Part shown: positions 23,899 through 53,691 of the stretch, piece by piece | Numbering within the stretch: the first letter of the stretch is position 1 | How the letters are laid out: each line of letters starts with the position of its first letter | Source of the DNA: an uncultured Gammaproteobacteria bacterium | GTDB lineage: Bacteria > Patescibacteriota > Microgenomatia > JAMCZE01 | NCBI GenBank assembly: GCA_964641255.1 | Contig: CAZXMM010000001.1 | Location: 601,984-665,983 of the forward strand | DNA length: 64,000 nt | Direction of reading: 5' to 3' | Position numbers and translations under genes: made by a program | The notes under the pieces: generated by a model | Told to the model about the DNA's origin: nothing | Seen by the model: the letters and a program-made list of their open reading frames with translations, nothing else | Databases searched by the model: none

Positions 23899-24048
23899 TT
23901 CGGGATATTACAGAAGTTTAATAAAAAATGTCGTACTTTTATGGATAGTTTATTTATCACTTTCCCTTACAGGGTTGTCCATTATTCTTAATAAATAAAA
24001 CTACTACTTTATGTAGTAGGTCTTAACTGATAAGCTAGTCTTTAGTTT

Positions 24049-24975
24049 ATGATTAGGCACCTATTTATTCCTCACAAGGCTAAAAACAAACACAAAAAAG
24101 CCCATCTTCTTTCTTTTAATGCACTGGCCTTTTACGTTGTTTTTTTCGTTTTTATGCAAATTGGTTTTTCGGCCATAAGAGTTGTGCAGCCAGGAGTTCT
24201 TGGAACCACCTCGGCAATCACTAAGCAAGAGATTATTAATTTAACAAATTCAGATAGGCAAAAAAATAATGCTCAACCATTAAAAGAAAACGAAAAATTA
24301 GATCAAGCGGCGGAATTAAAGGCAAAAAATATGTTTGAGGAAAACTATTGGGCACATGTTTCCCCATCTGGCAAAGATCCATGGTTGTGGATTCAGAAGG
24401 CTGGATATAATTACCTCTTTGCAGGTGAAAATTTGGCAAGGAGTTTTTCTTCCTCTTCGCAAGTAGAGAGTGCTTGGATGGCCTCCACAATGGGCCACCG
24501 GGAAAACATTTTAAATAATAGATACCAGGAAATTGGTGTTGCCGTTGAAGATGGTGTCATTAACGGCGAAAAAACTACACTGGTCGTTCAGTTATTTGGC
24601 ACAATGACGGGGGCAAATGTTAAACCACAAATTAGTGACGAGGGAGCAAACACTACAGTTGATAATAAGATCGCTACAAATATCCCAAGTGACCAGTCAC
24701 TTGCCATGATTCCGCAAGTAAAAAGTGCCAAAACTGTTGCATCCCCAGCACCATCTTTTCTTAGTCAATACATAAGAATCAACCCTTATTCCATTACACG
24801 AGCATTAACCTTTTCTCTTATAGCTATTCTGACAATAATAGGACTTACTGACATAATTGTTCTTTGGAAAAGAAAGGTTGCAGTAAACCTGGCGCTTAGA
24901 CACTTACCCCACTTTGGGTTAATACTAGCATCGGCATTAATTCTTTTAATTATGCGCATTGGAGTCATGATTTAA
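24049..24975 (+). CDS. CAP/SCP-domain protein with N- and C-terminal TM segments
   Basis: NYWAHVSPSGKDPWLWIQKAGYNYLFAGENLARSF...MGHRENILNNRYQEIGVAV. Confidence 0.55.
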   Translation: MIRHLFIPHKAKNKHKKAHLLSFNALAFYVVFFVFMQIGFSAIRVVQPGVLGTTSAITKQEIINLTNSDRQKNNAQPLKENEKLDQAAELKAKNMFEENYWAHVSPSGKDPWLWIQKAGYNYLFAGENLARSFSSSSQVESAWMASTMGHRENILNNRYQEIGVAVEDGVINGEKTTLVVQLFGTMTGANVKPQISDEGANTTVDNKIATNIPSDQSLAMIPQVKSAKTVASPAPSFLSQYIRINPYSITRALTFSLIAILTIIGLTDIIVLWKRKVAVNLALRHLPHFGLILASALILLIMRIGVMI

Positions 24976-29770: not shown

Positions 29771-29863
29771 AAATTAATGATACTACATAGTGTAGTAATA
29801 TCTCTGATTATAACTTTTTGTTTATTAAGGATTTATGAAGAGGTCAAAGAAGAGCACCTAGTG

Positions 29864-36088: not shown

Positions 36089-38863
36089 CTATTTGGCCAT
36101 ACCAGAACTAACCCGAGCAAATTCAATAAACAGAAGGGTAAAGGCAACTATCATTCCAATTGGTGCATAGGTAGACAAGTAATTCTTTTTGCCTGGACTA
36201 TATTTGCGAAGCAGGAGAGAATTACCAACTACAGAAATGGAACTTAGGGCCATAGCTAGACCCGCCAGTTCCGGCTTAAGAATTAAGCCTAGTCCAATAA
36301 ACACTCGGGCTGCAACAGGAATGCCGATAACATTATAGAAAAGGGCAAAGAACATATTTTGTTTAATTTTGCCCATCGTATCTTTAGAAAGATCAATTGC
36401 ATTTACCACATCTCTTAGATCATTTTTTATAATCACAATTCCGCCAGTTTCCATTGCCACATCAGTCCCAGATCCCATCGCAATTCCCAGTTCCGCTTGC
36501 GCAAGCGCCGGGGCGTCGTTGATTCCATCTCCCACCATGGCCACCTTCTTGCCCGATTCTTGAAGTTTTTTAACCTCATTTGCCTTGTCCTGGGGAAGAA
36601 CCTCAGCCAAAATATTAGTTATCCCCACTTGCGAAGCGATGGCTTTGGCAGTTCGAGTATTGTCTCCAGTAATCATCCAGACATCAATTCCACGCTTCTT
36701 AAGCGCTTCTACAGCCTCCCGGGATGTGTCTTTAACTGTGTCTGCAACTGCCACGGCTCCTAGAATTTCTTTACTGGTAGCCAAAATCATGGCTGTTTTT
36801 CCTTGTTCCTCAAGGCGTTCAATTTTTCGTTCAATGCGATCAAGCGGAAGTTTGACTACATCAGAAATGAGTTTACGATTGCCAAAAAAGTAGGTCGTCT
36901 TGCCAATTTTCGCTTGTACTCCGTGGCCAGGAATGGCTTTAAAGTCGTCAACCTCATCAAGTTTTATGCCTTCCTCTTCGGCATATTTGCAGATGGCCTC
37001 GGCCAGGGGATGTTCAGATTTCTTATCAATACTGGCAGCAATTTTTAACACCTCGTCTTCATCAATTGGTCCAAAGTCCTCCACATCAGTTACTTCCGGC
37101 TTGCCTTTGGTCAGAGTTCCAGTTTTATCAAAAACAATTGCATTAACTTTGCAAGCAGCCTCCAGTGGCTCGCCACCCTTAACTAAAATTCCATGCTCAG
37201 CTCCTTTTCCGGTTCCCACCATAATAGCAGTGGGAGTGGCCAGTCCCAGGGCGCAAGGGCAAGCAATCACAATAACGGCAGTGAAGGCCATTAAGGCAAA
37301 GGAGAGTGGAGCACTCAACACAAAGAACCAAACAATAAAGGTCAAGGCAGCTACCCCAATTACAGCCGGAACGAAATAAGCGGAAATGCGGTCAGCAAAA
37401 GCTTGGATTGGAGCCTTAGACCCTTGGGCGTCTTCAACCAGTCTGATTATCTGTGAAAGTGTTGTTTCTGCTCCAAGTCTAGTGGGACGAAATTCAAAGC
37501 TGCCGGTTTTATTAATGGTGCCACCAATAACTGAGTCCTCTTCATGTTTTTCCACCGGCAAACTTTCGCCAGTAATCATTGATTCGTCAATTGCTGATGA
37601 GCCTTTGAGAATTATGCCGTCAACCGGAACTTTCTCACCCGGTCTAACGACCACTACATCGTCTTTTGTCACTTGATCAACCGGGATGTCAAGAGTTTGG
37701 CCATCTCTAATAACTCTGGCTGTTTTAGCCTGGAGTCCCATTAGCTTTTTAATCGCGTCTGAGGTTCTTCCTTTGGCTTTGGCTTCAAGCAGTTTTCCCA
37801 AGATGACAAAAGTAATTAGAAAGGCAGCGGTTTCGAAATATAACTCAGGAATCTTCATCCCATTTAGTCCAATAAACGAGCTGTTAATTGCAACATAACG
37901 AAGATAGCTAATCAGGCTATAGAAAAATGCCACAGAGGTGCCAATAGCAATCAATGAATCCATGTTAAACGTTCTCATTCGCAGTGCTGACCACATGCCT
38001 TTATAGAACCTGGAGCCCAGAACAAATTGAATCGGGGTGGCCAAAAGTAGAGAGACGATGCCAATGTAGGGAAGCAACAGTTTCGCTCCCGGTAGGAAGC
38101 CAAAAAAATCCAGAAGCATAAAGTAAAGCATCGGAGCTGAGAGGACAAGACCAGCTATAAAGTTGGTAAATTGTGTTTTGATTTCGGCTTGTTGTCTTTG
38201 AGTGTCAGACGCGGTATTTTTGGCGTCAACCAATTGGGCTTTGTATCCAGCCTTTACAACAGCTTGGGTTAAGTCGTCTACTTTTGCTGGACCTTCAAAA
38301 ACGACACTAGCTTTTTCCGCGGCAAAATTAACTCTCGCTTCCTTAACTCCAGCAACTTTTTTTAAGGATCTTTCGATAAGTGCCGCGCAGGAAGAACAAT
38401 GCATTCCATAAAGTGAGAGATTAACTTTTTGCACTCCTTGTGGAACAAGCATATTTTCCGGTTGTAGTGTTTCTTCTGTCGCTATTTCTTTTTCACTGCT
38501 CTGATCAGCCACTTTCAGTCTTCCTTTGAAAACAAGTTGTCCGTTATCATCTTTACCAAGCTTCCCTTCAAACTCCAGTTCTTTAGGCAGAATTAGTTGT
38601 ACTTGCTGCGGGAACGTCGCAATTTCTTCGACTCTTTTGTGGCCGCCAGTATTTAATATTTCCCCTTTGTAGCCAGCTCTTTCGATGGCAGCCAAAACTC
38701 CGGCGGTGTCCGCATTACCATTTACAAACTTCACCGTTCCTAGCCCTGATTTGTGATCGACCTGAATGTCAGAAATCCCTTGAAGTGCCAGAATTTCTTC
38801 TTTGACCAGCATTTCGCATGATTCACAGTGCATTCCAGAAACTTGAAAATCGAGTTTAGTCAT
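36089..38863 (-). CDS. copA: Cu(I)-translocating P1B-1 ATPase with two N-terminal HMA domains
   Basis: GMHCESCEM and [13 protein letters not shown] motifs. [27 protein letters not shown] and MALSS. Confidence 0.9.
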
Positions 38864-38868
38864 AGATT

Positions 38869-39093
38869 TTAGTTGATAATATTTACCACTTGGTAATTAG
38901 TCATTTCGAGCGCCTTTTTTAATTCCTCTAAGGAAATCTCTCTATCAGCAGTAACTTGTGCTTCACTTTTATCCAGATCCACTTCGACCGAAGTTACCCC
39001 ACTTATTTTTTCAATCATCATCTTGGTTAATTTCTGACACGCCTGGCAGTGCAGCCCGGAAAGTTTAACTTTGAAATTGGTTTGTTGGTTCAT
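38869..39093 (-). CDS. copZ: HMA-domain copper chaperone
   Basis: 74 aa. [10 protein letters not shown] is the MxCxxC metal-binding motif. Confidence 0.75.
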
Positions 39094-39107
39094 AAAACTA
39101 GAATTAT

Positions 39108-40934
39108 TTAATTAACTTGAATTGTTCCTCTGGGAACACCCATTGCACAGGTTATTTGATAGCTGCCAGCCTTTGGAGTGAATTCAAAAACTGTAGTTTT
39201 TCCCGCTTTTAAAATGTCAACTTTGTCGGTTAGACCGGGAATTGTAATGCTTCCCATGCACCCTTGGCCATTATCTTTGGCGAGGACTTCGAAACGGACT
39301 GGCTTACCTGCCTTAAGGGTAAAACTATTCGGACGAATGTCAGCACTTTGAGTATAGGTTGTTTTTATAACTTGGACATCTGCTTGTTGGACCTGGGTTG
39401 AAGGATCAGCGACAACTACTGGTTGTGCCTTTTTAGCTCCTCCTCCGCAACCACACCCGCCACTTTTTCCACAAGATCCACCGGCGGTTGGAGCAGTGGG
39501 GACTGAGGGTTGATTTTGAGCTAGTTCTGCTTGTGGTTGGGGAGCAGTTGCCCCAGTATCGTCAACCACATTAAATGATCCAGTGTACATTCCCATGCTG
39601 CAGGAAAATCGGATTGCCCCTGTTTGCGTCGGAGTAAATTCAATTATATTTTCACCGGCGTTGAGAGATTTTCGAATATTCAATTGCGAAGAAACAATGC
39701 TTGCTGAGCAAGTGTTAGGGTCAGTGGAGTTGATAAGCCACCTAACGGGAACATTTCTTTTAATTGTGAAGGCATTTGGTGAATAGCCGTCTCCTGATTG
39801 TGTCATTTTGATGACTTGGACTCCATTTTCTAGTTTAACATTAGGGTCGTTAACATTGGTGGCGGCAACCGAGGCGGGGCTAAATACCGTTGAAATTATT
39901 TCACCTGGATTAAAAGTGATACCAGTTAAGTTGTAGCCATTTTGAATGTTAAATATGGCCAACAAGATAACTACAATGCCCGCTGTTTTAAAAAATAATC
40001 GCGATGCGGCTCCTTTAACAACTGAGGTGAGTCCGCCCACTCCAAGAAGTCCCGGTGCAGTTCCCAGTGCAAATGTTCCCAAAGTTAAAGCTCCCGTAAC
40101 AGCATTGCCTGAGCCCATAGCAAATAGCACCATTGCTTGGGTAAAAGCACAGGGGAGGAAAAAGGTGGTTGCGCCTAAAATTGCTGCGTTCTTGTGACTA
40201 TATTCTTTCTCACTCTTTTCTTTAATACCAAAAAGCCGACTGATACTTTTAGGCAAAGTGAAATTTATCCCTTTGAGAAATGGAAAGATGTCTACCAATT
40301 GGGCTCCCAAAAGTAACATTACTGAACCTACAATTATGATTAATATTCCCAAAAGTGAGTTAGAAAGCTGGAAAAAAGATCCCAAAAAGCCAACTATCGC
40401 TCCGAAGATTGTATAAGAAACTATTCGGCCGGCGTTAAAAAACAGGTGCGGTTTGAATTTGTCTTTTGCGGATGCATTTGGGTGTTTCTCGGCAAACTTT
40501 GCTGAGGCTCCAAGAATTAAGCCGCCAATTAAAGCCATGCAAGTCGAAACTCCGGCGGTTAGGCCGATTAGGAAAACAATCGGCAGACTGTTGTAATTAC
40601 TTGAAGACACTAAATTTAAGTGGAAGAAACCCAATCCTTTGGCAACCAGAATTAGATCCAATGCCAGAAATATGGCAATGGCGAGGTCTTTGTAGTCGCG
40701 GGGATTTTTTGATAAATACGACCTGTCATCCTGCCCCAGTGAATATCCGGCATTAGTAACTGCCATTTCTACTTTTTGTGGGTCGATATTGGTTTCTGAG
40801 TATATTTCGGCAGTTCCCGCAGTCTGGCTGACAACAGCTTTTTTGACCCCGGGGATGCGTAAAAGTTCGTCTTCTACTAGAAGTTCACAACTCCTGCAGT
40901 GCATTCCTTTAATACAAATTGTGTCTTTTTTCAT
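39108..40934 (-). CDS. HMA-domain / polytopic permease / two C-terminal cupredoxin-like beta-domain repeats
   Basis: N-terminal GMHCRSCEL, central multi-TM region, Gly/Cys linker, then an internal repeat: IEFTPTQTGAIRFSCSMGMYTGSFNVV and FEFTPKAGSYQITCAMGVPRGTIQV. Confidence 0.5.
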   Translation of the reverse strand: MKKDTICIKGMHCRSCELLVEDELLRIPGVKKAVVSQTAGTAEIYSETNIDPQKVEMAVTNAGYSLGQDDRSYLSKNPRDYKDLAIAIFLALDLILVAKGLGFFHLNLVSSSNYNSLPIVFLIGLTAGVSTCMALIGGLILGASAKFAEKHPNASAKDKFKPHLFFNAGRIVSYTIFGAIVGFLGSFFQLSNSLLGILIIIVGSVMLLLGAQLVDIFPFLKGINFTLPKSISRLFGIKEKSEKEYSHKNAAILGATTFFLPCAFTQAMVLFAMGSGNAVTGALTLGTFALGTAPGLLGVGGLTSVVKGAASRLFFKTAGIVVILLAIFNIQNGYNLTGITFNPGEIISTVFSPASVAATNVNDPNVKLENGVQVIKMTQSGDGYSPNAFTIKRNVPVRWLINSTDPNTCSASIVSSQLNIRKSLNAGENIIEFTPTQTGAIRFSCSMGMYTGSFNVVDDTGATAPQPQAELAQNQPSVPTAPTAGGSCGKSGGCGCGGGAKKAQPVVVADPSTQVQQADVQVIKTTYTQSADIRPNSFTLKAGKPVRFEVLAKDNGQGCMGSITIPGLTDKVDILKAGKTTVFEFTPKAGSYQITCAMGVPRGTIQVN

Positions 40935-41018
40935 TTTTTTCTAATTAAAAACCAACTCTTGTTGAAGCGTTGGTTCTTGCTTACAAATGATTATGTTTGA
41001 AGGATACTAAAGTGAAGA

Positions 41019-41516
41019 TTAAGAAATTGTTAAGAAATGATGTGCAACTCCACCTGTCATTTGGGAAACGCACCATTTGGCGTAAAATCCTCCAAATAAT
41101 AGTCCCAGCCAGGCATTTTGTGCCGGAAGAGCATAATCAATTGACACATTTAGTAGTGACTTTTCTTCCTGGGGCGTGATTTGAACGACCATCTTATAAG
41201 GACCAACTACAAGTAATTTAGGATTATCCGCCGTTTCCCAAACCTTAATATTGGGCGGTTGATATTGGGTAACGACTTCATCCAGCCATAAGGAAAATCC
41301 CAAAGCCGTGCCCGTCATTGTAATATGAGAACCAACCTTTTTACCCTTCCCATCATCAACAGATGTAGTCATCTTTCCTCCGCCCATCATCCAGGACGAT
41401 TTTGCCATATGGGACGAAAAGAGAATAGGATCGTCAATAAAATTGAAAACTTCAGAAGGAGTAGCAGAGACTAAAACTCTTTGTTCATAGTGATATGGCA
41501 GCATTAAATTGAGCAT
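41019..41516 (-). CDS. SRPBCC (START/polyketide-cyclase-like) domain protein
   Basis: Size and general pattern only. Weak call. Confidence 0.3.
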   Translation of the reverse strand: MLNLMLPYHYEQRVLVSATPSEVFNFIDDPILFSSHMAKSSWMMGGGKMTTSVDDGKGKKVGSHITMTGTALGFSLWLDEVVTQYQPPNIKVWETADNPKLLVVGPYKMVVQITPQEEKSLLNVSIDYALPAQNAWLGLLFGGFYAKWCVSQMTGGVAHHFLTIS

Positions 41517-41521
41517 CCGAA

Positions 41522-41935
41522 CTAGTAAACATTAATCGTAAATTCCTTATTAAGGATCTCACCACCTGGCATGACCACTTTAGTTCTCACTGCCCATGGT
41601 CCGCCCATTGAAAGGCCACCAGTTGCTGCATATTGACCATTTCCTTGGGGAGTGGCTTCCCCCTGCTGTGTTCCCATATTCATGGTCGTCATATTAAGAT
41701 CAAAAGAAACTTTGGCATTGTCGACTGCTTTGCCATCTTTATCTTTGACTGAAATTACAAAAGTTGTCTTGCCAAGTTTTGGCGGGTTTGGATTTGTGGA
41801 AAGACTAATTTGTCCGTTTCCAGTTGCTGCCAAATTCCCATCCTGGGGCGAAGCAAAAATAAATTTAAAGCCCAGGATACCAACAATGACCACAATAACT
41901 AAGAGAATGATGGGTAACAAATTTTTGTTATTCAT
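41522..41935 (-). CDS. Secreted YtkA/FixH-like protein (possible Cu-binding)
   Basis: Signal anchor. VISVKDKDGKAVDNAKVSFDLNMTTMNMG. Confidence 0.3.
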   Translation of the reverse strand: MNNKNLLPIILLVIVVIVGILGFKFIFASPQDGNLAATGNGQISLSTNPNPPKLGKTTFVISVKDKDGKAVDNAKVSFDLNMTTMNMGTQQGEATPQGNGQYAATGGLSMGGPWAVRTKVVMPGGEILNKEFTINVY

Positions 41936-41951
41936 AATTTTCCTTTCTATT

Positions 41952-43022
41952 TTAAGTTACATTAATTAACATCATTAGTCCACCAGGTTCTTTGTGTTCA
42001 TTGGTCGTGTGGTGCGGGATGTGACAATGCAGCATCCACTTTCCCGGCCTGTCTGGAGTAAATTCGATATCATATCTTTCCCCAGGAGCTACCGATATAA
42101 CATCCTTTGTCCATTGTGCAGACTCTGGCACATCATTTCCATCGGTAGCAACAACTTTAAATGGAAAGCCGTGAAGATGCATTGGATGAATCATTTGTCC
42201 ACTGCCAATGAACCGCAAGCGGATCTTTTGTCCCACTTTCGCTTCAATGGTTTCTGTTTCCGGGTATGACTTGCCATTAATTGTGAAGAAGTTTCCGTCC
42301 ATTCCTGTTGCTGGCATTGCTGCATAAGTTTGGCCATCAATCACACGCCATTCGTTAAGCATTAAAACTTTATCAATATCTGGCTTTGACACAAGTCCGC
42401 CAGGAGGATCGATAATGAAGGCTCCAGAAAGACCAACTGAAATTTGTTTATCGCTGTCAAAATGGGAATGATACCAATATGTCCCAGCTGGCTTGGCAAT
42501 AAATTCATAAGTAAACGTCTCTCCCGGTTGAATTGGTTTTTGTGTCTCATCAGGAATGCCGTCCATATTGTTCGGAACTTGAATTCCATGCCAGTGGATT
42601 GTGGTTGGTTCTGGCAAATTGTTTTTAACTAGAATTCTTACTTTGTCTCCTTCTGCGACATGGATTAATGGTCCAGGGACTGTTCCGTTATATGTCCAGG
42701 CAGTTACCGTAACATCCTTGAGAATTGGCCAACGAACTGGTTCGGCAGTAAGGTTAAAAACCTTCACTCCATTTTCAAAAGTATACTTTAGCTCCTGTAG
42801 TCGCTGTTTTTCGGTTGCTTGGGCAGCTCCTTGTTGGGGAATAGCCTCCATTGCTTCTATTGCAGATTGGTTGGTTCCTGATGTTGAAAGTTGTGCTGGC
42901 GGATTTTTAAAGCTGGTCTGCCTATTATTGGATCCCAAAAAATATAACAAGGCGGCACCAATGACAACAAACACAATAATAAAAATATTTTTTCCGACAA
43001 GATAGTTTTGGAATTTATTCAT
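41952..43022 (-). CDS. Two-domain multicopper oxidase
   Basis: HWHG Cu-site motif (TIHWHGIQVP) and C-terminal HCHIPHHTTNEHKEPGGLM (HCHxxxH...M). Confidence 0.8.
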   Translation of the reverse strand: MNKFQNYLVGKNIFIIVFVVIGAALLYFLGSNNRQTSFKNPPAQLSTSGTNQSAIEAMEAIPQQGAAQATEKQRLQELKYTFENGVKVFNLTAEPVRWPILKDVTVTAWTYNGTVPGPLIHVAEGDKVRILVKNNLPEPTTIHWHGIQVPNNMDGIPDETQKPIQPGETFTYEFIAKPAGTYWYHSHFDSDKQISVGLSGAFIIDPPGGLVSKPDIDKVLMLNEWRVIDGQTYAAMPATGMDGNFFTINGKSYPETETIEAKVGQKIRLRFIGSGQMIHPMHLHGFPFKVVATDGNDVPESAQWTKDVISVAPGERYDIEFTPDRPGKWMLHCHIPHHTTNEHKEPGGLMMLINVT

Positions 43023-43488
43023 ATCGAATTTCTATATTATCACTATCCTTCATTAAGAAATTATTAAAATCCGTGTTTGGTTTCCCATTTACTGTCATTT
43101 TAACTTTTCCCCCCGCACCGTTACACTTATCAAAAACGCAAGTCTTGCTAAATTCCTTTCCCCAAACTTGAAAAAATCTCCCGAGTTTCGTTTGGTCTTT
43201 AGAAACTGTTCCGTTCATTTCCATGTGGATAACCCCATCTTTAAAGTCTGCAATATGCGTATGCATCGGCATCTCAACTCCTCCAAGACCAATATCTCGA
43301 GCCAGTTGTTGCTTTTCACCTTTAATGTAAATAGTTAGTTTTGGGTGCCAATGTAAACCATTCTCTGACACAATTAGTTCTTTGGGAATATTACTTTTTC
43401 TGGAGAACATAAATACCCCGCCAATGATAATTGCTACGGTTGTAAGCATTACTGCTCCTATTATTTTTGTCTCAGTAGTTAATTTCAT
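43015..43488 (-). CDS. Secreted His/Met-containing hypothetical protein
   Basis: Signal anchor. HWHP, MPMHTH, IHMEM. Confidence 0.35.
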   Translation of the reverse strand: MKLTTETKIIGAVMLTTVAIIIGGVFMFSRKSNIPKELIVSENGLHWHPKLTIYIKGEKQQLARDIGLGGVEMPMHTHIADFKDGVIHMEMNGTVSKDQTKLGRFFQVWGKEFSKTCVFDKCNGAGGKVKMTVNGKPNTDFNNFLMKDSDNIEIRYE

Positions 43489-43898
43489 AAAACTTCAACG
43501 TCCAACTTTTCTTTATGTTGATCATTTGCACAACCAGCAGTTATTGATCCGTTTTTTGTTGCCACAAATTGGATTGTCTTTCGTGATAGAGGAGGGATGC
43601 TCTCTGCAATATTAAACTGAACCAAATGCAGTCCGTGAAGGATATTGTCTTTATTTTCAACATTTAAAGTGACCGTGTCGTTTAGATTAACTTGAATCTT
43701 GGCTGGTTGGTATTGCTCTTTGCTGAGAGTGAGATTGAAGGCCTTAGTTTGAGCGGACACTTGTTTTGAAGGTGCAATTACTTTGAAAAATAAAACAGCC
43801 ATGACAACAATTGTGCCAAGTAATATCCCTGGCAAAAGAATATTATTGATTTTCGCAACCGGTTCCTCTTTTTCAATAATTTTAGGCTCTTTGGACAT
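43485..43898 (-). CDS. Membrane-anchored cupredoxin-like domain protein (start trimmed to MSKEPK)
   Basis: TLNVENKDNILHGLHLVQF...SITAGCANDQHKEKL gives an H...C...H pattern. Confidence 0.35.
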   Translation of the reverse strand: MSKEPKIIEKEEPVAKINNILLPGILLGTIVVMAVLFFKVIAPSKQVSAQTKAFNLTLSKEQYQPAKIQVNLNDTVTLNVENKDNILHGLHLVQFNIAESIPPLSRKTIQFVATKNGSITAGCANDQHKEKLDVEVL

Positions 43899-44388
43899 TT
43901 GAGTTAACTTTGCACTCTGCTGCTGTTTTGTTTTTAGCCAGTAGAATGAGTGAAATAATAAGCAACACAATAGACAAATATGATAGCTCCAACCCTCGAA
44001 GAGGCAGATAAAATAAACTTCCTGAGATCCCCAATAATGAAAGAATTGGCAATCCACAGGCTGCACAGCCACTAGTGGCCAGCCCAAGAAGACTGCTGCC
44101 GCCGACTACAAGATGGACATTACCCGTTTTTGAAAGTTCTCCAATTCGTTGAACCAAAATAGACAAATTAAGTCCGGTAAGTCCGGCTGTTAATAACAGA
44201 ATTGTTAAACCAAAACCACCCATTACTGACCACATCCCCAAAATCAGAGCTACGAAAAGATTCAATTTATAACTCACTGTATAATTCCCGATTAATGTAT
44301 CAAGGGCTAGGCGTGAATTCATAAAATATGTCGTTGCTAAGAAGTAGAGGACCGTAATTATCAGCGCTGGGAATAAAACCTTTCTCAT
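43882..44388 (-). CDS. Membrane protein with intramembrane CAAC motif, possible DsbB/VKOR-like partner of DsbA (start trimmed to MRKVLFP)
   Basis: LGLATSGCAACGLPILSLLG. Adjacent to the DsbA-like gene. Confidence 0.3.
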   Translation of the reverse strand: MRKVLFPALIITVLYFLATTYFMNSRLALDTLIGNYTVSYKLNLFVALILGMWSVMGGFGLTILLLTAGLTGLNLSILVQRIGELSKTGNVHLVVGGSSLLGLATSGCAACGLPILSLLGISGSLFYLPLRGLELSYLSIVLLIISLILLAKNKTAAECKVNSNVQRA

Positions 44389-44398
44389 AGTCGGATAA

Positions 44399-45139
44399 CT
44401 AAAGCGCTGAGAGTTTTTGATCGATAATTGTTTTAATTGTATTGTAAGGTTGAGCACCAATTACCGGAGTGTCACCAACAGCAGTGCTAGGGGTGCTATT
44501 AAATCCGTTTTTATTTGCTTCAGCAGTATCAGCTGTCACTTGAGCATTGTATTTTTGAGAATCTAAACACTGGTCAAACTGCGAACTATTAAGTCCAAGA
44601 TCAGCGGCTATCTTTTTCAGATTTGGGATAGAAAATGTTCCCTGATTTTCTCCACTTTGACTAGTGTAAATTTTGTCATGAAACTCCCAATATTTGTTTT
44701 GTTCCTTAGCACACATTGCCGCATTGGCAGTGTCTGTGGATTCTTTTCCAAGAAAAGCTAAGTTTTTAAAAACGAATTTGATTTTGCCCTTGTCAATATA
44801 GTCTTTCTTAAGCTGTGGCAGGACTTCCGAATGAAATTTTCCACAGAATGGACATTGGAAGTCACCAAACTCAACCACAGTTAGCTTTGCATTGGCATTC
44901 CCCAAATATGGATCGTCGCTTGTTACCTTGATATCAACTTTTGTTGGCGCTGGTGGTGCTGCATTGGGAGTGGGTTGTTGGTTAATTCCTGCAAGAGGGG
45001 CAGCAGCAAGGGCTGCGGTTCCTGCTACTCCCTTCCCCTCGAGGTATTGAATTTTAGTATACATTCCACCAACTCCGGCACCAAGAACAAAAATTACCAC
45101 GGCTACCAAAATTGAGATGATAGGATTATCGAACTTCAT
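44399..45139 (-). CDS. DsbA-family thiol:disulfide oxidoreductase (membrane-anchored)
   Basis: FGDFQCPFCGKFH thioredoxin-fold CPFC active site. Confidence 0.7.
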   Translation of the reverse strand: MKFDNPIISILVAVVIFVLGAGVGGMYTKIQYLEGKGVAGTAALAAAPLAGINQQPTPNAAPPAPTKVDIKVTSDDPYLGNANAKLTVVEFGDFQCPFCGKFHSEVLPQLKKDYIDKGKIKFVFKNLAFLGKESTDTANAAMCAKEQNKYWEFHDKIYTSQSGENQGTFSIPNLKKIAADLGLNSSQFDQCLDSQKYNAQVTADTAEANKNGFNSTPSTAVGDTPVIGAQPYNTIKTIIDQKLSAL

Positions 45140-45190
45140 TACTACACAGTGTAGTAGGTGTATTTTCTCTTGTCAAGAGGAGTTTGACAG

Positions 45191-46168
45191 TTATTTGGTG
45201 CTAAAAGGATGGGAAGAATTTTCAACTGACTGGTTTGGAGCAGACTTTTGGTTTCGTTCACACCATGACGCACAAGAATCATCATTTGGACAGACCATCA
45301 TGATATCCTTGCCGTCCTCGTGGTTTTCTATTGCGTGAACGGGCGTAATTGCAGCAAAACTAACAATCAAAATTGATATTACGGTAATAAGGATATTAAG
45401 TAGATGAAACTTTTTATAAATCACTCTTTTCTCAAGCAGTGTGTTAATCCGGACCTCAAACGTATCTGGTTCCCCAATTCCTAGTGAAAATTCAAATCTA
45501 TTTGAGTCTTCTATTAAAAGAAGTTTTCTCATTGCGGACAGCAGTGGCTGTCTTTCCCCTTGATGGTAGACGACAGATTGATCAGCGCGGACTTCTCGCT
45601 CAATGCGAAAATTTTGCACAAAATCTGCAAGCACCGGAAAATAGGGAAATAAAGCACGAGCAATCGATAATAGTGTTAAAACGAGCGGATCGTGATTGTC
45701 CAAATGACTTTTTTCGTGGAGGAGAATTGCTTCAAGCTCTTTGGTATTTACTTCTGAGACCAGGGTTGACGAAATGTATATTTTTGGACTTTTCATTCCC
45801 ATGCAGTAGGCAAAGAGTTTAGCACTTTTAACCTGTATTACCCTTTCTTTAATTTCCAGTTTTTTTGCAGTTTGCGAAAGTTTCGGATTCATATTCAGGC
45901 ATGGGATAAGACTTTTTTTATGGCGAGAAATCGTATAAAGGCTTAAAAGAAGCCTAACGATTGGAAAAATAATTGTTAGGAAGAAGAGTAAAATAAGAGC
46001 GATACCAAAAGTTTGAGGAAGTTGGAAAGATAAAGACTTGATTACGTTTTGACAGTAATAAATTGTGTGACTAATCGAAAGATGGAGGAACTTTTGAAAA
46101 ATAAAGAAAGCGGCTAAGCAGAAAATGCCAAGCAAGCCGGTAGCTACTAATAGACTTTTATTTGCCAT
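45191..46168 (-). CDS. BlaR1/MecR1-like M56 membrane metalloprotease with Cys/His-rich extracytoplasmic tail in place of a beta-lactam sensor domain
   Basis: AILLHEKSHLDNHDP (HExxH). C-terminal tail HAIENHEDGKDIMMVCPNDDSCASWCERNQ. Confidence 0.6.
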   Translation of the reverse strand: MANKSLLVATGLLGIFCLAAFFIFQKFLHLSISHTIYYCQNVIKSLSFQLPQTFGIALILLFFLTIIFPIVRLLLSLYTISRHKKSLIPCLNMNPKLSQTAKKLEIKERVIQVKSAKLFAYCMGMKSPKIYISSTLVSEVNTKELEAILLHEKSHLDNHDPLVLTLLSIARALFPYFPVLADFVQNFRIEREVRADQSVVYHQGERQPLLSAMRKLLLIEDSNRFEFSLGIGEPDTFEVRINTLLEKRVIYKKFHLLNILITVISILIVSFAAITPVHAIENHEDGKDIMMVCPNDDSCASWCERNQKSAPNQSVENSSHPFSTK

Positions 46169-46568
46169 TATCGGACAGCAATTTTAGTAACTGTTTCTTT
46201 TTCTCAGTAGGTAGCTTGTCAAGTGTTTCAGCAAACGAAGCTATTGCTGTATCACCATAAGACTTAAAAAATTTTTGGACGAATGATTGGGCAATATTTT
46301 TGCTGTAAACCTTTTTAGAAAGTTTAGGCGAGTAGTAAAAAGTTTGCCCAGACCCTTTACGGACAACCACCCCCTTATCGTTAAGTCTTTGAAGTATTGT
46401 TGCCACAGTCGTATAGGCCAATTTCTTAGATTTAGTTAATTCTTGCAGGACATCTCGTACCGAACAATTTTTCAGTTGCCAAACGATGTTCATTGCTTCT
46501 TGCTCCAGCTCACTCAGTTGCTTCGCGTTCATACTACAGATTGTAGGAAAGCATGATAGGAATTGCAA
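46158..46568 (-). CDS. BlaI/MecI/CopY-family winged-helix repressor (no C-terminal Cys motif)
   Basis: LSELEQEAMNIVWQL...VRDVLQEL...YTTVATILQRLNDKGVVVRK. Overlaps the M56 gene start. Confidence 0.7.
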   Translation of the reverse strand: MQFLSCFPTICSMNAKQLSELEQEAMNIVWQLKNCSVRDVLQELTKSKKLAYTTVATILQRLNDKGVVVRKGSGQTFYYSPKLSKKVYSKNIAQSFVQKFFKSYGDTAIASFAETLDKLPTEKKKQLLKLLSDNGK

Positions 46569-46574
46569 GATCGC

Positions 46575-47195
46575 TTAGTTAAGCAGAAATATTCTTGGAT
46601 TTACTGGAATTCCAAATACTCTTACTTCAAAATGCAAATGTGGTCCTGTGGCCCAACCTGTTTGACCTTCTAGGCCAATTACATCATTAGTAGTTACTTG
46701 TTGACCTGTAAACACATAAACCTTGTCTAAGTGACCATAAACTGACGTAATATTGTCTCCGTGGTCAATAATTATATGTTTACCGTAACCAATTGCTGTT
46801 TCTCCTGCGTAAATGACTTTGCCATTCATAAATGGGACTATCGGGTCGCCAATTTTGCCGCTGGGATTAGCAATATCAATTCCTGTATGAAGAAGTTGAT
46901 ATGGTAGATCGGATTCTCCAAACCCAAGAGTAATAACTCCTTTAACTGGCCAGACTATTTGGGCATGAATTTCTTTAACTACTGAATTGTCAGCTGGATT
47001 ACGAATTTGGATAGATTGAGTTTGAACATTAACCGTAGCTAACTTATCAGAAACAATATTAATTCCTGTGTTTGTCAAAATTATGACTGCCACAATTGGC
47101 ATGGCCAGAACAATGAGGAAAGCAGTAGCTACGTAGATAAGTTCTTTTCTAAATGACCAAGCGGCCAAAATTGTGCTTGGAGTCAAGATGGCCAT
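46575..47195 (-). CDS. M23-family peptidase (cell-wall hydrolase of the T4SS module)
   Basis: HTGIDIANPSG...GPHLHFEV. Confidence 0.7.
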   Translation of the reverse strand: MAILTPSTILAAWSFRKELIYVATAFLIVLAMPIVAVIILTNTGINIVSDKLATVNVQTQSIQIRNPADNSVVKEIHAQIVWPVKGVITLGFGESDLPYQLLHTGIDIANPSGKIGDPIVPFMNGKVIYAGETAIGYGKHIIIDHGDNITSVYGHLDKVYVFTGQQVTTNDVIGLEGQTGWATGPHLHFEVRVFGIPVNPRIFLLN

Positions 47196-49003
47196 TAAAG
47201 ATAAATCTCCTTTGGATCAGTCGTTAGAAGTGGGTGTTCTTTTTCTGAAGCCACAACTTTAAGGGCAACATGGTTTTGGTCAGCAATAATGAGAGCTTCT
47301 CCTCGGTCACATGTTAGGAGGAAATGTTCCTCATATTCACTTAAATGAAATTCCTGAGCTACTTTTTGAATGGTGGTAGTGTCTTGCTTCATCAGCACTC
47401 TAAGTGCTGATTGCGAAGCAATGGCCCGACCATATTCTTGATTTAAGAAATCATTGGCTTGTTGGGAAATGATAGTTACTCCCAAATAATATTTTCTCGC
47501 TCGTCTAACAAGTCCAGAAATGAATCTAGCACTTTCCTCATATTGGAGAAGCAACCAACCCTCATCAATAACGAGAATGCGTTTTTGAGGGTTCGTCTTC
47601 ACTTCCGAGTTCACAAAGTTAGCAATTGTTAGCATCATGATTTGTCTCAAAGACTCACCAAGATCCTTAATGTCAAAAACTACTAAGCGATTGGTTAAAT
47701 CGATGTTTGTTTGGGAATCAAATACTGAGGAGAGTGATCCTTCCACAAAACGTTCTAATCGGTTGCACAGATCAGTTTGTTTCACTGTTTTGAGGGTTTT
47801 ATAAAAATCCTTCAAAATCGGGAAGTTTTTATTCTTTGCTTTTGTACTTTTTCCATTCATTGAAAAGCCAAACTGTTTGTAAGTTTGAATCAGCGCCTTA
47901 TCTACCATCGCTCGCTCTTCAGTTGATAGTGAGCCCGCCATCAGTGAAATTATCTCTGTTAAATCTTGAATATGTTCTGAAAGACTGTTTTCTCCGTGAT
48001 AACTCGTGTTGGAAAAGTCAAAAGGGTTAATTTTCTCCTTGGAGTTGGCAGACAGTTTGATGTAACTGCCATTGACTGATTTTGCTAACTGTTCATACTC
48101 TCGTTCTGGATCGATGACAATCACTCTTGTTCCCTGCATTAGCTGCCTGAGTATTTCAACTTTAGCAGTGTAGCTCTTGCCTGAACCTGACTGAGCGAAA
48201 ATTATGCTGTTGGCATTGTTTAAACTGAATCTGTCGATGATAACGAGTGAATTGTTTGATTTGTTGATGCCATACAAAATGCCCGATTCTTGAACCAGTT
48301 CTGAAGATACAAAAGGGAAGGTTAATGCGGCTGAAGAACTATCCAAGTTGCGCTTTTGATTGAGAAGATTCTCGCCTCGAGGCAGAATTGATTGCAACCC
48401 TTCAATTTGTTGAAAATTAGCAGTTTTAATATAGAAAAGTCTGGTTGACATGACTGTTTCTAGTATTGTGGTTAATTTGTTTAGGTCACTTAAGCTATCT
48501 GCAATAAGCGTAATGTAGATTGAAAGTTGAAACAGTTTTTCTTGACCACGTTGAATCTTGTCTTTCAACTCAATTGCTGATTCAAGAGGATCAGTAATTT
48601 CCGATCCAATCACTTTACCGTCTTTAAGCATTGTTCTTTTAGTTGATTCCAGTTCTGTAATCTTTCTGGTTAATTTAGGCAAGGCCAGTTGTGGGTCAAC
48701 TTGCTCAATGTGATAGGAAATATCAACATTGTGATTAAAGTTGATCAGCATATTCAACCAACCAGTTGAAGCAACGTAAGGATAGCCAGAAATAAACAAG
48801 GTACGAACAAATTTATCTCCGACTTGGAGGTATGAGGCTTCTTCCATCATCCCGGAATAAGACAGTAGATCGACTTGATCTTGTTCCCCATGATGAAACT
48901 CCATGGAACGTTTAAATGTCTCTTTTTGAGCTTTTCTTTGTAGCCTCAGCTGGTTAATTTTATTGTCTTTGAATTTATCGATTAGATTAAGCATGGTTGT
49001 CAT
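47195..49003 (-). CDS. VirB4/TrbE-like conjugation ATPase
   Basis: Walker A AQSGSGKSYT, Walker B VIVIDEGW. 602 aa. Confidence 0.7.
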   Translation of the reverse strand: MTTMLNLIDKFKDNKINQLRLQRKAQKETFKRSMEFHHGEQDQVDLLSYSGMMEEASYLQVGDKFVRTLFISGYPYVASTGWLNMLINFNHNVDISYHIEQVDPQLALPKLTRKITELESTKRTMLKDGKVIGSEITDPLESAIELKDKIQRGQEKLFQLSIYITLIADSLSDLNKLTTILETVMSTRLFYIKTANFQQIEGLQSILPRGENLLNQKRNLDSSSAALTFPFVSSELVQESGILYGINKSNNSLVIIDRFSLNNANSIIFAQSGSGKSYTAKVEILRQLMQGTRVIVIDPEREYEQLAKSVNGSYIKLSANSKEKINPFDFSNTSYHGENSLSEHIQDLTEIISLMAGSLSTEERAMVDKALIQTYKQFGFSMNGKSTKAKNKNFPILKDFYKTLKTVKQTDLCNRLERFVEGSLSSVFDSQTNIDLTNRLVVFDIKDLGESLRQIMMLTIANFVNSEVKTNPQKRILVIDEGWLLLQYEESARFISGLVRRARKYYLGVTIISQQANDFLNQEYGRAIASQSALRVLMKQDTTTIQKVAQEFHLSEYEEHFLLTCDRGEALIIADQNHVALKVVASEKEHPLLTTDPKEIYL

Positions 49004-49607
49004 TTAGTAATGTTTGAATAGTTTGGCCTTTTAATTGCTGAGTTTTCGTTTGGTCCTTGTTATAAAAGGAATAAAATAAATCCAATAGCTCTAAACTGTC
49101 GAGTTGTCTGGCTTTCATTCCTAACTTTTCAATACCTTTCGTAACCAGATCGGCATTCAACTTAATTTGTTCTTTAATAACTTGGAAATCCTTAATCTTG
49201 GTTGTGTTGTGATAGGGAATTACAATGTAAAACCTCCGAGAAAGGATTTTGTTGCCGGAAACTACGCTTTTAATGAAGTCAGAGTAATTGGCAATTTGTT
49301 CTTTATACTGAGCTTCTTTTTCTTCCGTTTTTGATTTTGCAATTCCCTCCAAGTAGCTGTCGATGTCAACTTCTCTAACTCGAACAAGAATTTGAATTTG
49401 ACTAGGAAGTGAATTAAGGAAGTTTTGAAAACTATCAATTAGAACATCTTGTTCCTGCTCACTTTTGAGTTCAAAGTTAATTGAGGAAGTCTCAATGGCC
49501 ATGCGGTATTGTTCGCTGGGAAGAATAAGAATACCGTCTTTAACTTCTTTGATATTAATTTGTCTTCGGGAGCTAACTTTGTTGCTAGACTTGTTCAAAA
49601 GCCACAT
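48987..49607 (-). CDS. T4SS-associated hypothetical protein
   Basis: Operon position only. Confidence 0.35.
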   Translation of the reverse strand: MWLLNKSSNKVSSRRQINIKEVKDGILILPSEQYRMAIETSSINFELKSEQEQDVLIDSFQNFLNSLPSQIQILVRVREVDIDSYLEGIAKSKTEEKEAQYKEQIANYSDFIKSVVSGNKILSRRFYIVIPYHNTTKIKDFQVIKEQIKLNADLVTKGIEKLGMKARQLDSLELLDLFYSFYNKDQTKTQQLKGQTIQTLLNDNHA

Positions 49608-50094
49608 GGAGTCCTCCTTTCTTGTTTGTCTTAAAACTAAAGCTCAAATTTTTGTTTAAGACCAATTTATCCAGTTCCACTAAATCCTTGATGCCAATAT
49701 TCTTTGTTGGATTGATTACTGGTTGGAGATGTGCTTTTCTAGCAAGGTTTTTTGCCTTCATTGGAACTTCTGGTAAATAGAGAGTGCGTAAACAGTTATC
49801 GTTTTTGTTAAAGACGTAATATTTTGGCCTTAGGTTGTAGTTAGACAAAACAAGCAACCAATCAAGAATAATTTTTCCTTTGATGCGCATGGCCAAAATA
49901 GTAAAAGTGCTAATTGCAAGCAAACTAGCTGCTATCTTGATTGGGTTGAGTTTGTAAGTGGGAGGTAAAACTACATAAAGAATAGTGGCACTAAATATTG
50001 CACCTAAGAAGAGAAGGATTTGCGTCAGATTTAGGTTTCCGGCAATCTTATCCTCCACTGTAGTAATTTGTGCTGGCACAACTGTTGTTCTCAT
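49585..50094 (-). CDS. T4SS-associated membrane protein
   Basis: Two TM segments. Operon position. Confidence 0.35.
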   Translation of the reverse strand: MRTTVVPAQITTVEDKIAGNLNLTQILLFLGAIFSATILYVVLPPTYKLNPIKIAASLLAISTFTILAMRIKGKIILDWLLVLSNYNLRPKYYVFNKNDNCLRTLYLPEVPMKAKNLARKAHLQPVINPTKNIGIKDLVELDKLVLNKNLSFSFKTNKKGGLHVAFEQV

Positions 50095-51386
50095 ATTGCA
50101 ACCGCCTTTCTGGGTACTTTGATTACTGCTTCTTTAGCCGCTACTGCTGTAGCTGAACTCGATCTTTCAGTGGTCATTACATTGACAATTTGACTCCCCA
50201 TTTTTTTGAAAGTGCCATTTCTCGAAGTGTAGAAGACCATTTGCATCATCGTGCCAGGAACTTTAAGAAGGGTGAGAAAAAGTCCAATTGCAATCGCGAT
50301 TGCTAACAGTGAATTATTAGAGTTGCCAGGAATAGTTAAGAATGCAGCCGCTAGTTGAATAACTACTACATGGATAAACACAGTAAAGACAGTAGCGACG
50401 TAAGATTTAATCGCAATTTCAGCAAAGTCAGAGAATTTTGGTAAGGTCCATAGCAGAAAGATAAATGGTGACAAAACTGCACCTAAAGAAATAGTAATTA
50501 GTCGAGCAATGTACATAAGGAGGAGAACCACTGCCAAAATGAGGAATAGCACGAGGAAAATAAGTGTAATAAGTGGAGTAGTGCCAGTGGCAAAGCTCAC
50601 GGGATTAATTGCATCCATAATCCAGGCATGGCTCAGTCCTCCAGTGGAATCAAGAATAGTTTTGACTAAAGTGTTAGCTGTGGTAATCACATAGTCAGCC
50701 AGGAATAAAGAAATATTAGCTCCCAGAAATGCGGTCCCAATTCTTGGCAGCAGTTGTTTTAATTCCACTTCTTCAAACCCAAGAGTGCTGGCACTCATGA
50801 AATGAAGACCAAGCAGCGCCACCACCAAAACAAATAGTGTATCCACGATTCCCAAACTAACTAACCAAAAGTTCGTAATCACTGAATTACCCAAAAGATT
50901 GGGAGTTGTGGTTAAAAAGCCAATGATGCCGTCAACTATTGGTTTAGTGGAACTTTCCACGATGTTTTGAATGAAAGCAGATACTGCGTCAATTAAGACT
51001 TGTGATAAACCATCACTTGGCTTAATGGTCGTAATTGGTGCAATAGTTACAGCAGCAGAATTTGCAGTAGTTGAGGAAGCAGGCAGCGCACCTTTAAAGA
51101 TGGAAATGATCAGTCCCGCAGACAGAACCACAACGAGACCCATTAAACTGTTTCTAATTGTTTTCTTGGCCTCATCTAGTGCTTGTGGTTGACCCGCTGA
51201 GGTGAAATAGAGATAACCACCTTTAATTAAGAAAAGCGTTGCTGCCGCCGTTGCAATGATGGTAATGAGATTTAAAGTATCAGTGGTATAAGTTGCCAAA
51301 TCCGTTCCCGCAGCAAATGCGGGCAAAGGAAATATGAAGAAAGCTAGGATTACTCCTAAAATGGTTACAACTTTTCTCATAGGCAC
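50091..51386 (-). CDS. VirB6/TrbL-like polytopic membrane protein with N-terminal pilin-like domain
   Basis: Signal peptide. The N-terminal domain GGYLYFTSAGQPQALDEAKKTIRNSLMGLVVVLSA is homologous to the adjacent small pilin-like protein. Six or more TM helices follow. Confidence 0.4.
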   Translation of the reverse strand: MPMRKVVTILGVILAFFIFPLPAFAAGTDLATYTTDTLNLITIIATAAATLFLIKGGYLYFTSAGQPQALDEAKKTIRNSLMGLVVVLSAGLIISIFKGALPASSTTANSAAVTIAPITTIKPSDGLSQVLIDAVSAFIQNIVESSTKPIVDGIIGFLTTTPNLLGNSVITNFWLVSLGIVDTLFVLVVALLGLHFMSASTLGFEEVELKQLLPRIGTAFLGANISLFLADYVITTANTLVKTILDSTGGLSHAWIMDAINPVSFATGTTPLITLIFLVLFLILAVVLLLMYIARLITISLGAVLSPFIFLLWTLPKFSDFAEIAIKSYVATVFTVFIHVVVIQLAAAFLTIPGNSNNSLLAIAIAIGLFLTLLKVPGTMMQMVFYTSRNGTFKKMGSQIVNVMTTERSSSATAVAAKEAVIKVPRKAVAI

Positions 51387-51388
51387 TT

Positions 51389-51736
51389 TTAATTACCTGT
51401 TCCTGATCCAAAAGCACCAGTCGCCAGTTGTGTGACCATGTTAGACAGCACAAATGCTCCCAGAACGACCACTAAGCCAATGGCTGAATAGACAATGGTC
51501 TTTTTGGATTTATCCAGTGCTTCAGGATTGCCGGAACTTGTGATGTAACCAAATCCACCAACGACAAAGAACCCAGAAGCAACAAGACCAGCGAGAGTTA
51601 CCAGAATAGTAATGATGCTTTGGATAAATGTTTGAATTTTTGATACATCAGCGGAAGCGGCAAAAACTGGAGTGGTAATTGTAAGTGCTGTTAAAGCAAG
51701 AGCTTGTAAAAAAACAATTTTCTTCATATCTTCCAC
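51389..51736 (-). CDS. VirB2/TrbC-like pilin candidate
   Basis: Signal peptide plus two hydrophobic helices. GGFGYITSSGNPEALDKSKKTIVYSAIGLVVVLGA. Confidence 0.45.
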   Translation of the reverse strand: MEDMKKIVFLQALALTALTITTPVFAASADVSKIQTFIQSIITILVTLAGLVASGFFVVGGFGYITSSGNPEALDKSKKTIVYSAIGLVVVLGAFVLSNMVTQLATGAFGSGTGN

Positions 51737-53659: not shown

Positions 53660-53664
53660 ATTAA

Positions 53665-53689: not shown

Positions 53690-53691
53690 CT

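Follow-up and report, generated by a model that had tools for sequence, protein, structure and literature searches.

A BlaI-type repressor and an M56 protease without penicillin-binding domain as a candidate proteolytic switch of a copper-resistance island in Patescibacteria

The repressor–protease gene pair

The DNA analysed in this work is a stretch of 64,000 nucleotides, hereafter the window, corresponding to positions 601,984 to 665,983 of contig CAZXMM010000001.1 (assembly GCA_964641255.1), which is filed under an uncultured Gammaproteobacteria bacterium and placed by GTDB in the Patescibacteriota (Microgenomatia; JAMCZE01). A previous interpretation made from the letters alone, called here the sequence-only reading, had recognised in it a BlaI/CopY-family repressor paired with an M56 protease, and both open reading frames (ORFs) were indeed found on the minus strand at the coordinates which that reading gave. 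Specifically, the repressor gene (46158..46532, minus strand) encodes a 124-aa winged-helix protein of the BlaI/MecI/CopY family with a single conserved cysteine, Cys23, and its end overlaps by 11 nt (ATGGCAAATAA) with the ATG of the protease gene (45191..46168, minus strand), which encodes an M56 zinc metalloprotease of 325 aa without a penicillin-binding domain. As argued below, this pair probably acts as a copper-responsive derepression switch. The conservation counts refer throughout to the 120 best repressor homologues and to 125 full-length protease representatives.

The repressor ORF matches the Pfam profile Penicillinase_R (PF03965) with 95.1 bits (cut-off 22.6, E 4.6e-27), which assigns it to the BlaI/MecI/CopY family, and it recovers the PDB entries of MecI and BlaI at 1e-10. 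Its best NCBIfam match is CopY_TcrY (TIGR02698), with 57.3 bits against a cut-off of 121.95, and the alignment spans profile positions 2–99 of 130 only; since it stops at position 99, the C-terminal cysteine hook of CopY is absent. None of the 120 homologues contains a CxC motif, nor CxCx4CxC, and the copy in the window has no histidine residues. The lack of both makes a CopY-type direct metal site unlikely, and the sequence-only reading was right that this protein lacks the CxC...CxC motif of CopY. The CopY identity was rejected on the lack of the hook, on the score under the cut-off and on the absence of the cop box from the window.

Homologues of the repressor are numerous, amounting to more than 450 at about 60% identity in Gottesman-, Davies-, Levy- and Roizmanbacteria. 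They are 124–126 aa long and start with MxxKxLSELEQ at the equivalent ATG, and a public gene call reports the identical sequence with 124 aa. On these grounds the start is the ATG at 46532, and the alternative TTG at 46568, which falls inside the gene's own −35 box, was discarded; the length of 136 aa given previously is accordingly corrected to 124 aa.

Besides the DNA-binding helix, the most conserved stretch of the repressor is GDTAIASFAES(I/L)DKLP (best 120 of the more than 450 homologues), in which the residues Ser99-Phe100 are invariant (120/120). These align with Asn101-Phe102 of Staphylococcus aureus BlaI, the experimentally mapped BlaR1 cut, at which the P1' phenylalanine is near-invariant (PMC9834060). 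From the alignment, a BlaI-type scissile bond, with Phe at P1' and lying in the dimerisation domain, appears to be present in the repressor, and its cleavage would be expected by analogy. Cys23, which is the sole conserved cysteine (119/120), aligns with a valine of S. aureus BlaI inside the winged-helix domain.

The protease matches Peptidase_M56 (PF05569) with 58.5 bits (cut-off 31, E 8e-16) and Peptidase_M48 with an E value of 2e-9. The zinc site H151-E152-K153-S154-H155 (45704..45718, minus strand), the HEKSH of the sequence-only reading, is completed by the third ligand Glu192 in a REVRAD motif, and H151, E152, H155, E192 and D196 are present in all 125 representatives, as in M56 gluzincins. 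Against the BlaR1 equivalog model (NF000326) the protein scores 37 bits, the cut-off being 400, and the protease core alone aligns. Its end lies 50 residues past the last hydrophobic helix, leaving no room for a penicillin-binding domain; the claim that a tail of about 50 aa, quoted exactly, takes the place of that domain is therefore correct. A role as a beta-lactam sensor-transducer of the BlaR1/MecR1 type was rejected, because the penicillin-binding domain (class D beta-lactamase-like, SxxK) is absent and the NF000326 score is under its cut-off.

A word-indexed search returned 19 relatives only, while an exhaustive profile search retrieved at least 241 representative clusters at E <= 1e-30, nearly all of them 290–340 aa long and aligned end to end. 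All the confident family matches come from metagenome-assembled genomes (MAGs) of the Patescibacteria/Microgenomates type.

Hydropathy analysis of the protease indicated strong helices at about residues 6–28, 53–78 and 253–275, and a weaker one at 161–184, flanked by HExxH and Glu192. Lys and Arg are abundant in the N-terminus and the central domain, and the tail is acidic. An AlphaFold2 model built on the 125-sequence alignment (predicted local distance difference test score, pLDDT, 85.6; predicted template modelling score 0.81) found its best structural matches by Foldseek in the cryo-EM structures of S. aureus BlaR1 (8exq/8exr, E 3e-6). In addition, the family profile aligned residues 54–274 with BlaR1 residues 100–324 (8exp, E 1.2e-13). 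By this alignment, the second strong helix would correspond to BlaR1 helix alpha3, which follows the extracellular loop EL1, and the last helix to the one leading to the extracellular sensor domain, so that the tail would stand in the place of the sensor domain. On the basis of this correspondence and of the positive-inside rule, the catalytic domain is predicted to be cytoplasmic and the tail extracytoplasmic, which answers the question of tail topology raised in the sequence-only reading. The same alignment places the BlaR1 autocleavage bond 283–284, known to be Ser283-Phe284 (PMC9834060), on family residues 230–231, where a small residue (A/S/G) followed by a bulky hydrophobic one (I/F/L) is found in 114/125 representatives; this autocleavage-loop-like motif is suggestive, not conclusive.

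Promoters, operators and the copper island

Directly downstream of the pair lies a DsbA-like gene (44399..45139, minus strand) coding for a membrane-anchored thiol-disulfide oxidoreductase with a CPFC motif (Pfam Thioredoxin_4, 4e-39). A promoter scan detected putative promoters ahead of both units. The repressor–protease promoter, TTGCAA-17-TACAAT (46540..46568, minus strand), has its −10 box ending 7 nt before the ATG, an arrangement common to all related loci. The promoter of the DsbA-copper operon, TTGACA-17-TACACT (45148..45176, minus strand), agrees with the consensus at 10 of 12 positions and is the best promoter-like site in the region 35000–47500.

Both promoters carry copies of a putative 17-bp operator dyad, TACTACA-N3-TGTAGTA. 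Operator O1 (CCTACAatcTGTAGT on the minus strand, 46533..46547) covers both the start site and the −10 box of the repressor promoter, implying that the repressor regulates itself, while operator O2 (TACTACActgTGTAGTA, 45140..45156) covers the −10 box of the DsbA promoter and abuts the DsbA-like ATG. A third copy, O3 (TACTACActaTGTAGTA, 29781..29797), lies just downstream of a TATAAT-like box and 11 nt upstream of a His-rich 64-aa ORF heading a second ATPase operon. Overall, TACA-N3-TGTA occurs three times in the window against 0.8 expected, always in intergenic positions and twice on −10 boxes, and the CopY cop box TACAnnTGTA has no match in it. With up to 2 mismatches allowed, no further operator was found in the window upstream of CopA or of a CsoR-like ORF; transcription of CopA probably continues from the DsbA promoter or is under its own control. 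A possible weaker operator with one mismatch, O4 (TACTACTttaTGTAGTA, 24002..24018), precedes by about 30 nt a CAP (cysteine-rich secretory protein) domain gene (24049..24975, plus strand), followed by a PcsB-like M23 peptidase in a stretch reaching 26358; this target may add a gene unrelated to metals to the regulon, or the match may be due to chance.

As regards transcript structure, the −10 boxes of both operator-bearing promoters end 7–11 nt before the ATG, which would leave little or no leader on the repressor mRNA and, in the window, on the DsbA mRNA; throughout the family (loci L001–L010) the repressor gene keeps this short spacing.

The operator was then compared across 35 species-representative loci (414 kb), in which the spacing N3 gave 68 sites, versus 2–9 for each spacing of 0–2 and 4–7. 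Sites stand before the repressor gene in 24 species loci (13–22 nt before the repressor match in 23/33, and 47 nt in one more) and between the protease and DsbA genes in 28; the remaining ones precede, in some genomes, multicopper-oxidase or CsoR-like/CopA operons. Both sites also recur in both places in ten loci fetched via protein homologues. Taken together, the operator positions and the N3 enrichment constitute strong comparative evidence that the repressor would control its own operon and the copper operons. The sequence-only reading had suggested looking for a dyad upstream of the repressor and of cop genes; it was found, in the window as in 35 other genomes, on the pair's own promoter and on promoters of copper or metal operons.

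The presumed target of this control is a set of copper genes identified by domain matches, all on the minus strand (36089..44460) and separated by overlaps or short gaps. After the DsbA-like gene come a CAAC membrane protein, a cupredoxin, a His/Met-rich protein of 157 aa, a multicopper oxidase and YtkA, and then an SRPBCC protein, an HMA-DsbD-cupredoxin fusion and a CopA-type P1B-1 ATPase of 924 aa with two CxxC, CPC and MxxSS. Beyond this cargo lie a weak CsoR-like ORF, an OmpR/histidine-kinase pair and the second metal-ATPase operon (26685–29770), in which the His-rich 64-aa ORF is followed by an ICMT-like protein and an HMBD P-type ATPase.

On the other side, an M23 hydrolase/peptidase gene is found directly upstream of the pair. 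It belongs to a conjugation module (46575–62020) that comprises the M23 hydrolase, a VirB4-like ATPase, a PrgI-like protein, a type IV secretion system (T4SS) pilin/TrbL-like protein, an AbiEii toxin, a Replic_Relax protein, a TraG/TrwB-like coupling protein and two large serine recombinases. The copper island looks like the cargo of an integrative conjugative element. With the conjugation module upstream and the copper genes downstream, the pair stands at the promoter-proximal head of the copper operon, and not simply at the end of the island as had been stated.

Related species loci, retrieved with a 13-sequence protease alignment, encode homologues of 30–39% identity within differing outer flanks. 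The gene order BlaI-M56-DsbA is kept in 30 of the 33 assessable loci, and copper genes (CopA, HMA-DsbD-cupredoxin, multicopper oxidase, YtkA) are present in 27 of all 35 loci, the exceptions being mostly contigs of less than 4 kb. Neighbours of the M23 and T4SS type were seen in the closest relative alone, unlike DsbA and the copper genes, whose conservation extends throughout the set. Many third-party MAG records titled "uncultured Gammaproteobacteria" or "Pseudomonadales" carry a locus of the Patescibacteria type in genomes of about 1 Mb, and these titles look like mislabels.

Some other features of the island were recorded. The GC content is 36–43% over the region 20–60 kb and 41–47% in the first 20 kb. 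An 86-aa ORF (35220–35480, minus strand) gives a weak CsoR/RcnR-family match, below threshold (E 0.0025), keeping the H-x3-C pair and lacking the first Cu(I)-ligand cysteine; in related loci a CsoR-like gene precedes CopA, with a BlaI-type operator in front of it in L005/L040. An OmpR-type response regulator and a HAMP histidine kinase are encoded inside the island (30837–32913, minus strand), adjoined by two small His/Met-rich membrane or secreted ORFs of 82 and 62 aa (30336–30790, minus strand); the two-component system and these ORFs could represent a second, independent metal-sensing system.

The outside module and the proposed switch

Two parts of the protease were considered as a candidate sensing module outside the cytoplasm. 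The first is a segment around Cys39 (residues 29–52, YYCQ; 46013..46084, minus strand) that, by hydropathy and alignment, takes the position of BlaR1 EL1, directly ahead of the alpha3-equivalent helix; its low hydropathy (0.1–0.9) favours an exposed position, and Cys39 is present in all 125 representatives. The sensor domain of BlaR1 is bound by EL1, and displacement of this loop is relayed via alpha3 to the protease (PMC9834060). The second is the C-terminal tail (residues 276–325; 45194..45343, minus strand), which opens with PVHAIENHEDGKDIMMVC293PNDDSC299ASWC303; it was modelled as a beta-hairpin (279–292) and a helix (298–307) with pLDDT values of 56–76.

In the tail, Pro276 is kept in 121/125 representatives, and the cysteines in 79–90% (Cys293 113/125, Cys299 102/125, Cys303 99/125); among the other residues Glu281 is found in 79/125, His283 in 68/125, Asp288 in 65/125 and His278 in 32/125. 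All four cysteines, Cys39 included, occur in 93 of the 125 proteins, two of them in 29 and an odd number in 3. The conserved feature is therefore a cysteine set having in Cys39 a partner outside the tail, not a histidine cluster: of the Cys/His-rich tail described previously, the cysteines are conserved and the histidines only moderately so. None of the outcomes that the sequence-only reading had named as contrary to its proposal (a cytoplasmic tail, a tail not conserved in homologues, an unrelated target) was encountered. At the very C-terminus of the protease (residues 317–325; 45194–45220) a second conserved motif, N-x-S-x-P-[YF]-[ST]-P, was observed; of about 100 members reaching that position, 83 have [YF] and 94 have [ST].

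Computation yielded the architecture of the genes, their family membership and conservation, the positions of the operators, the content of the regulon and the predicted topology. On this basis, we consider it rather probable that the pair is a proteolytic derepression switch for the copper-resistance island, triggered by copper. In such a switch, the repressor dimer would bind the 17-bp dyads that cover the −10 boxes of two promoters, its own and that of the DsbA/cupredoxin/multicopper-oxidase/CopA genes, as well as the dyad ahead of the second metal-ATPase operon. The co-translated M56 protease would be embedded in the membrane, exposing its catalytic domain to the cytoplasm and, to the outside, a composite module made of the Cys39 segment, in the place of EL1, and of the 50-aa Cys-containing tail, in the place of the sensor domain. 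This module would be altered by copper outside the cytoplasm, or by thiol chemistry that copper drives on the cysteines, and the signal would travel via the last helix and the one equivalent to alpha3 to the gluzincin domain on the cytoplasmic side; the protease would then cut the repressor at Ser99-Phe100 in the dimerisation helix, releasing the promoters. Copper as the signal, the outside module as the sensor and cleavage at Ser99-Phe100 are the parts of this scheme that we infer. The metal-triggered, BlaR1-type proteolysis put forward by the sequence-only reading is consequently upheld in its topology, tail conservation and operators, with the copper signal and the tail as binding site standing as inferences.

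Several observations weigh against this scheme. The tail histidines are weakly kept, and the even number of cysteines (2 or 4 in 122/125) fits structural disulfides, so that the cysteines may be scaffolding and not ligands; a close homologue, P0003, has lost two tail cysteines with its copper context unchanged. The AlphaFold confidence is modest in precisely these parts (pLDDT 57–61 for the Cys39 segment, 56–76 for the tail), and the sidedness of Cys39 is ambiguous, given that a membrane helix was predicted for the cyanobacterial protease PetP at the equivalent residues 28–50 (10.1101/2020.07.31.226407) and Cys39 could thus be intramembrane. The sensing residue could also be the conserved Cys23 of the repressor itself, and the actual copper sensor could be the two-component system of the island (30837–32913) or the CsoR-like ORF (35220–35480).

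The main rival to copper-triggered derepression is a switch responding to thiol or disulfide stress, in which the paired outside cysteines would monitor redox conditions at the cell surface (mis-oxidation by copper or other oxidants) and the DsbA-like target would repair the damage and reset the sensor. The even cysteine number of 122/125 proteases fits such a mechanism, as does the poor retention in the tail of classical metal ligands such as His; furthermore, the DsbA-like gene is the most constant neighbour of the pair (30/33 loci) and lies behind its own operator. However, the other genes of the regulon are copper-specific (multicopper oxidase, cupredoxins, HMA domains, CPC-type P1B-1 ATPase), and a general redox sensor needs no copper island, yet the pair is on one in 27/35 genomes. 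We regard this explanation as unlikely, though the strongest of the competing ones.

Direct sensing of copper by the repressor, in a CopY-like manner through Cys23 (two per dimer), with the protease clearing or maturing the repressor or acting on another substrate, is a lesser rival that we judge improbable. The near-invariance of Cys23 (119/120) and the CopY/TcrY profile as best NCBIfam match argue for it; but this cysteine aligns with a BlaI valine within the winged-helix domain, the CopY score is under the cut-off with the C-terminal part missing, CxC or CxCx4CxC occur in 0/120 homologues, and the strict conservation of the catalytic residues, of the gene overlap and of the Ser-Phe site argues that proteolysis is central. 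As for a BlaI/BlaR1-type system responding to the cell wall or to antibiotics that lies beside copper genes by chance, controlling for example the M23 peptidase or the conjugation module, it draws on the M23 gene directly upstream and on beta-lactam signalling being what BlaI/BlaR1 systems are best known for. This is very improbable, considering that the protease has no penicillin-binding domain, that no beta-lactamase or penicillin-binding protein gene was found among the 39 ORFs scanned (18.9–63.3 kb), that the M23/T4SS neighbours are confined to the closest relative while DsbA and copper genes are conserved throughout, and that the M23 gene, in contrast to the copper operons, has no operator facing it. 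Beta-lactam sensing was accordingly rejected, there being neither a sensor domain nor a resistance gene nearby.

As a copper-triggered switch, the pair would be the first regulator to be proposed for copper resistance in Patescibacteria, the candidate phyla radiation, whose tiny genomes have few known regulators and whose resistance genes travel here on a conjugative element. Our literature search, which covered few subscription journals, found no description of the Patescibacteria BlaI/M56 family, nor a paper linking BlaI/M56 to metals outside cyanobacteria. The family offers at least 241 sequence clusters, a candidate sensor (Cys39 and a CX5CX3C tail), a 17-bp operator, a regulon and a predicted cleavage site.

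Comparison with known systems

With BlaI/BlaR1 and MecI/MecR1 of S. aureus the pair shares the repressor fold family and the M56 gluzincin HExxH...E. It also has a Phe at the predicted P1' position of the repressor and a motif resembling the autocleavage loop. The predicted architecture of the protease is also that of BlaR1, with a cytoplasmic protease domain, an extracellular C-terminus and, before alpha3, an extracellular loop communicating with the C-terminal outside part. Unlike in BlaR1/MecR1, the 250-aa penicillin-binding sensor domain and the beta-lactam resistance genes are absent here, the repressor gene comes first, and about 49 fewer residues precede the alpha3-equivalent helix, so that one membrane helix has probably been lost. 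The operator half-sites are spaced by 3 nt here and by 2 nt in the BlaI/MecI systems.

With CopY/TcrY of Enterococcus, Lactococcus and Streptococcus the system has in common the winged-helix family, a TACA/TGTA-type dyad and the control of a CopA-type ATPase operon. In contrast, CopY binds Cu(I)/Zn(II) directly by its C-terminal CxCx4CxC and has no protease partner; its cop box is TACAnnTGTA (PMC5646241). A 2024 review of bacterial metal sensing, as far as its accessible text extends, treats CopY for Firmicutes only and leaves BlaI/M56 metal switches unmentioned.

BlaI/M56 pairs lacking a sensor domain exist in other phyla, an example being Rv1846c/Rv1845c of Mycobacterium tuberculosis. On the Salmonella IncC plasmid NZ_CP100354.1 (L011, 7144–14215) such a pair lies directly upstream of a TolC-MFP-CusA/CzcA-HupE operon, MFP denoting a membrane fusion protein, and the same is seen in Shewanella; on the Mycolicibacterium gilvum plasmid NC_014811.1 (L012) similar pairs stand beside TlpA and near a multicopper oxidase. 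These distant proteases share 25–35% identity with the window protease, in the protease core only, and differ from it in outside motifs and target genes. His clusters or single cysteines are present in the loop and the short tail of these proteins, and in the Salmonella IncC copy, whose outside motifs are His-rich, such clusters occur both in the outside loop (HWHHIDIFSFDSWH) and in the short tail (SLHHIIETFFTH). None of the distant pairs was found characterised as a metal sensor in the literature searched.

The recurrence of these features hints at a general design of metal sensing by loop plus tail, which, given the company of Czc-like and multicopper-oxidase genes on plasmids of Salmonella, Shewanella and Mycolicibacterium, may reach clinically relevant metal-resistance plasmids. 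More speculatively, and with some doubt on our part, M56 and BlaI pairs without a sensor domain might be widespread, largely unrecognised extracytoplasmic metal sensors with a ligand site formed by loop and tail, made of thiolates for copper in Patescibacteria (Cys39 and CX5CX3C) and of histidines in the Czc-like system of IncC; the adjacent DsbA-like oxidoreductase might reset the cysteines, giving a self-contained copper-thiol redox circuit.

The closest functional precedent, compared here through its published description, is PetR/PetP (Slr0240/Slr0241) of Synechocystis sp. PCC 6803, which operates the copper-dependent switch between cytochrome c6 and plastocyanin (10.1101/2020.07.31.226407). 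The degradation of PetR was shown experimentally to require both PetP and copper, and PetRP controls petE, petJ, slr0601 and slr0602, with PetR acting as repressor and activator (10.1101/2020.07.31.226407). In vitro, PetR neither binds Cu(I) nor changes its DNA binding in response to it, and PetRP has been tested in Escherichia coli. In both systems a BlaI-type regulator without the CopY cysteine motif is followed by an overlapping gene for an M48/M56 protease devoid of sensor domain, and the protease domain (about 88–256) and the last membrane helix (about 256–278) of PetP occupy nearly the same positions as here.

The differences concern the outside parts, the operator, the regulon and the taxon. 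PetP has practically no tail, and the ligands proposed for it are two methionines in a 14-residue loop between helices 2 and 3, unlike the protease of the window, with its Cys39 and its 50-aa Cys-containing tail; no methionine is conserved within residues 25–60 among the 125 representatives. The PetR operator is GACN5GTC, as opposed to TACTACA-N3-TGTAGTA, and PetRP governs copper use through four genes, while the regulon described here consists of copper-resistance operons on a mobile element. Finally, PetRP is confined to cyanobacteria and the window family to Patescibacteria-like genomes. A tblastn search of plasmids gave no cyanobacterial match.

In conclusion, the sequence-only reading had called the pair a possible non-canonical copper regulator; it is not a CopY, and it has a precedent in PetR/PetP (10.1101/2020.07.31.226407), of whose proteolytic copper signalling it would be a variant and not a new principle. 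PetP being the only characterised copper-responsive M56 protease, the family of the window offers further material on how proteases of this kind perceive copper.

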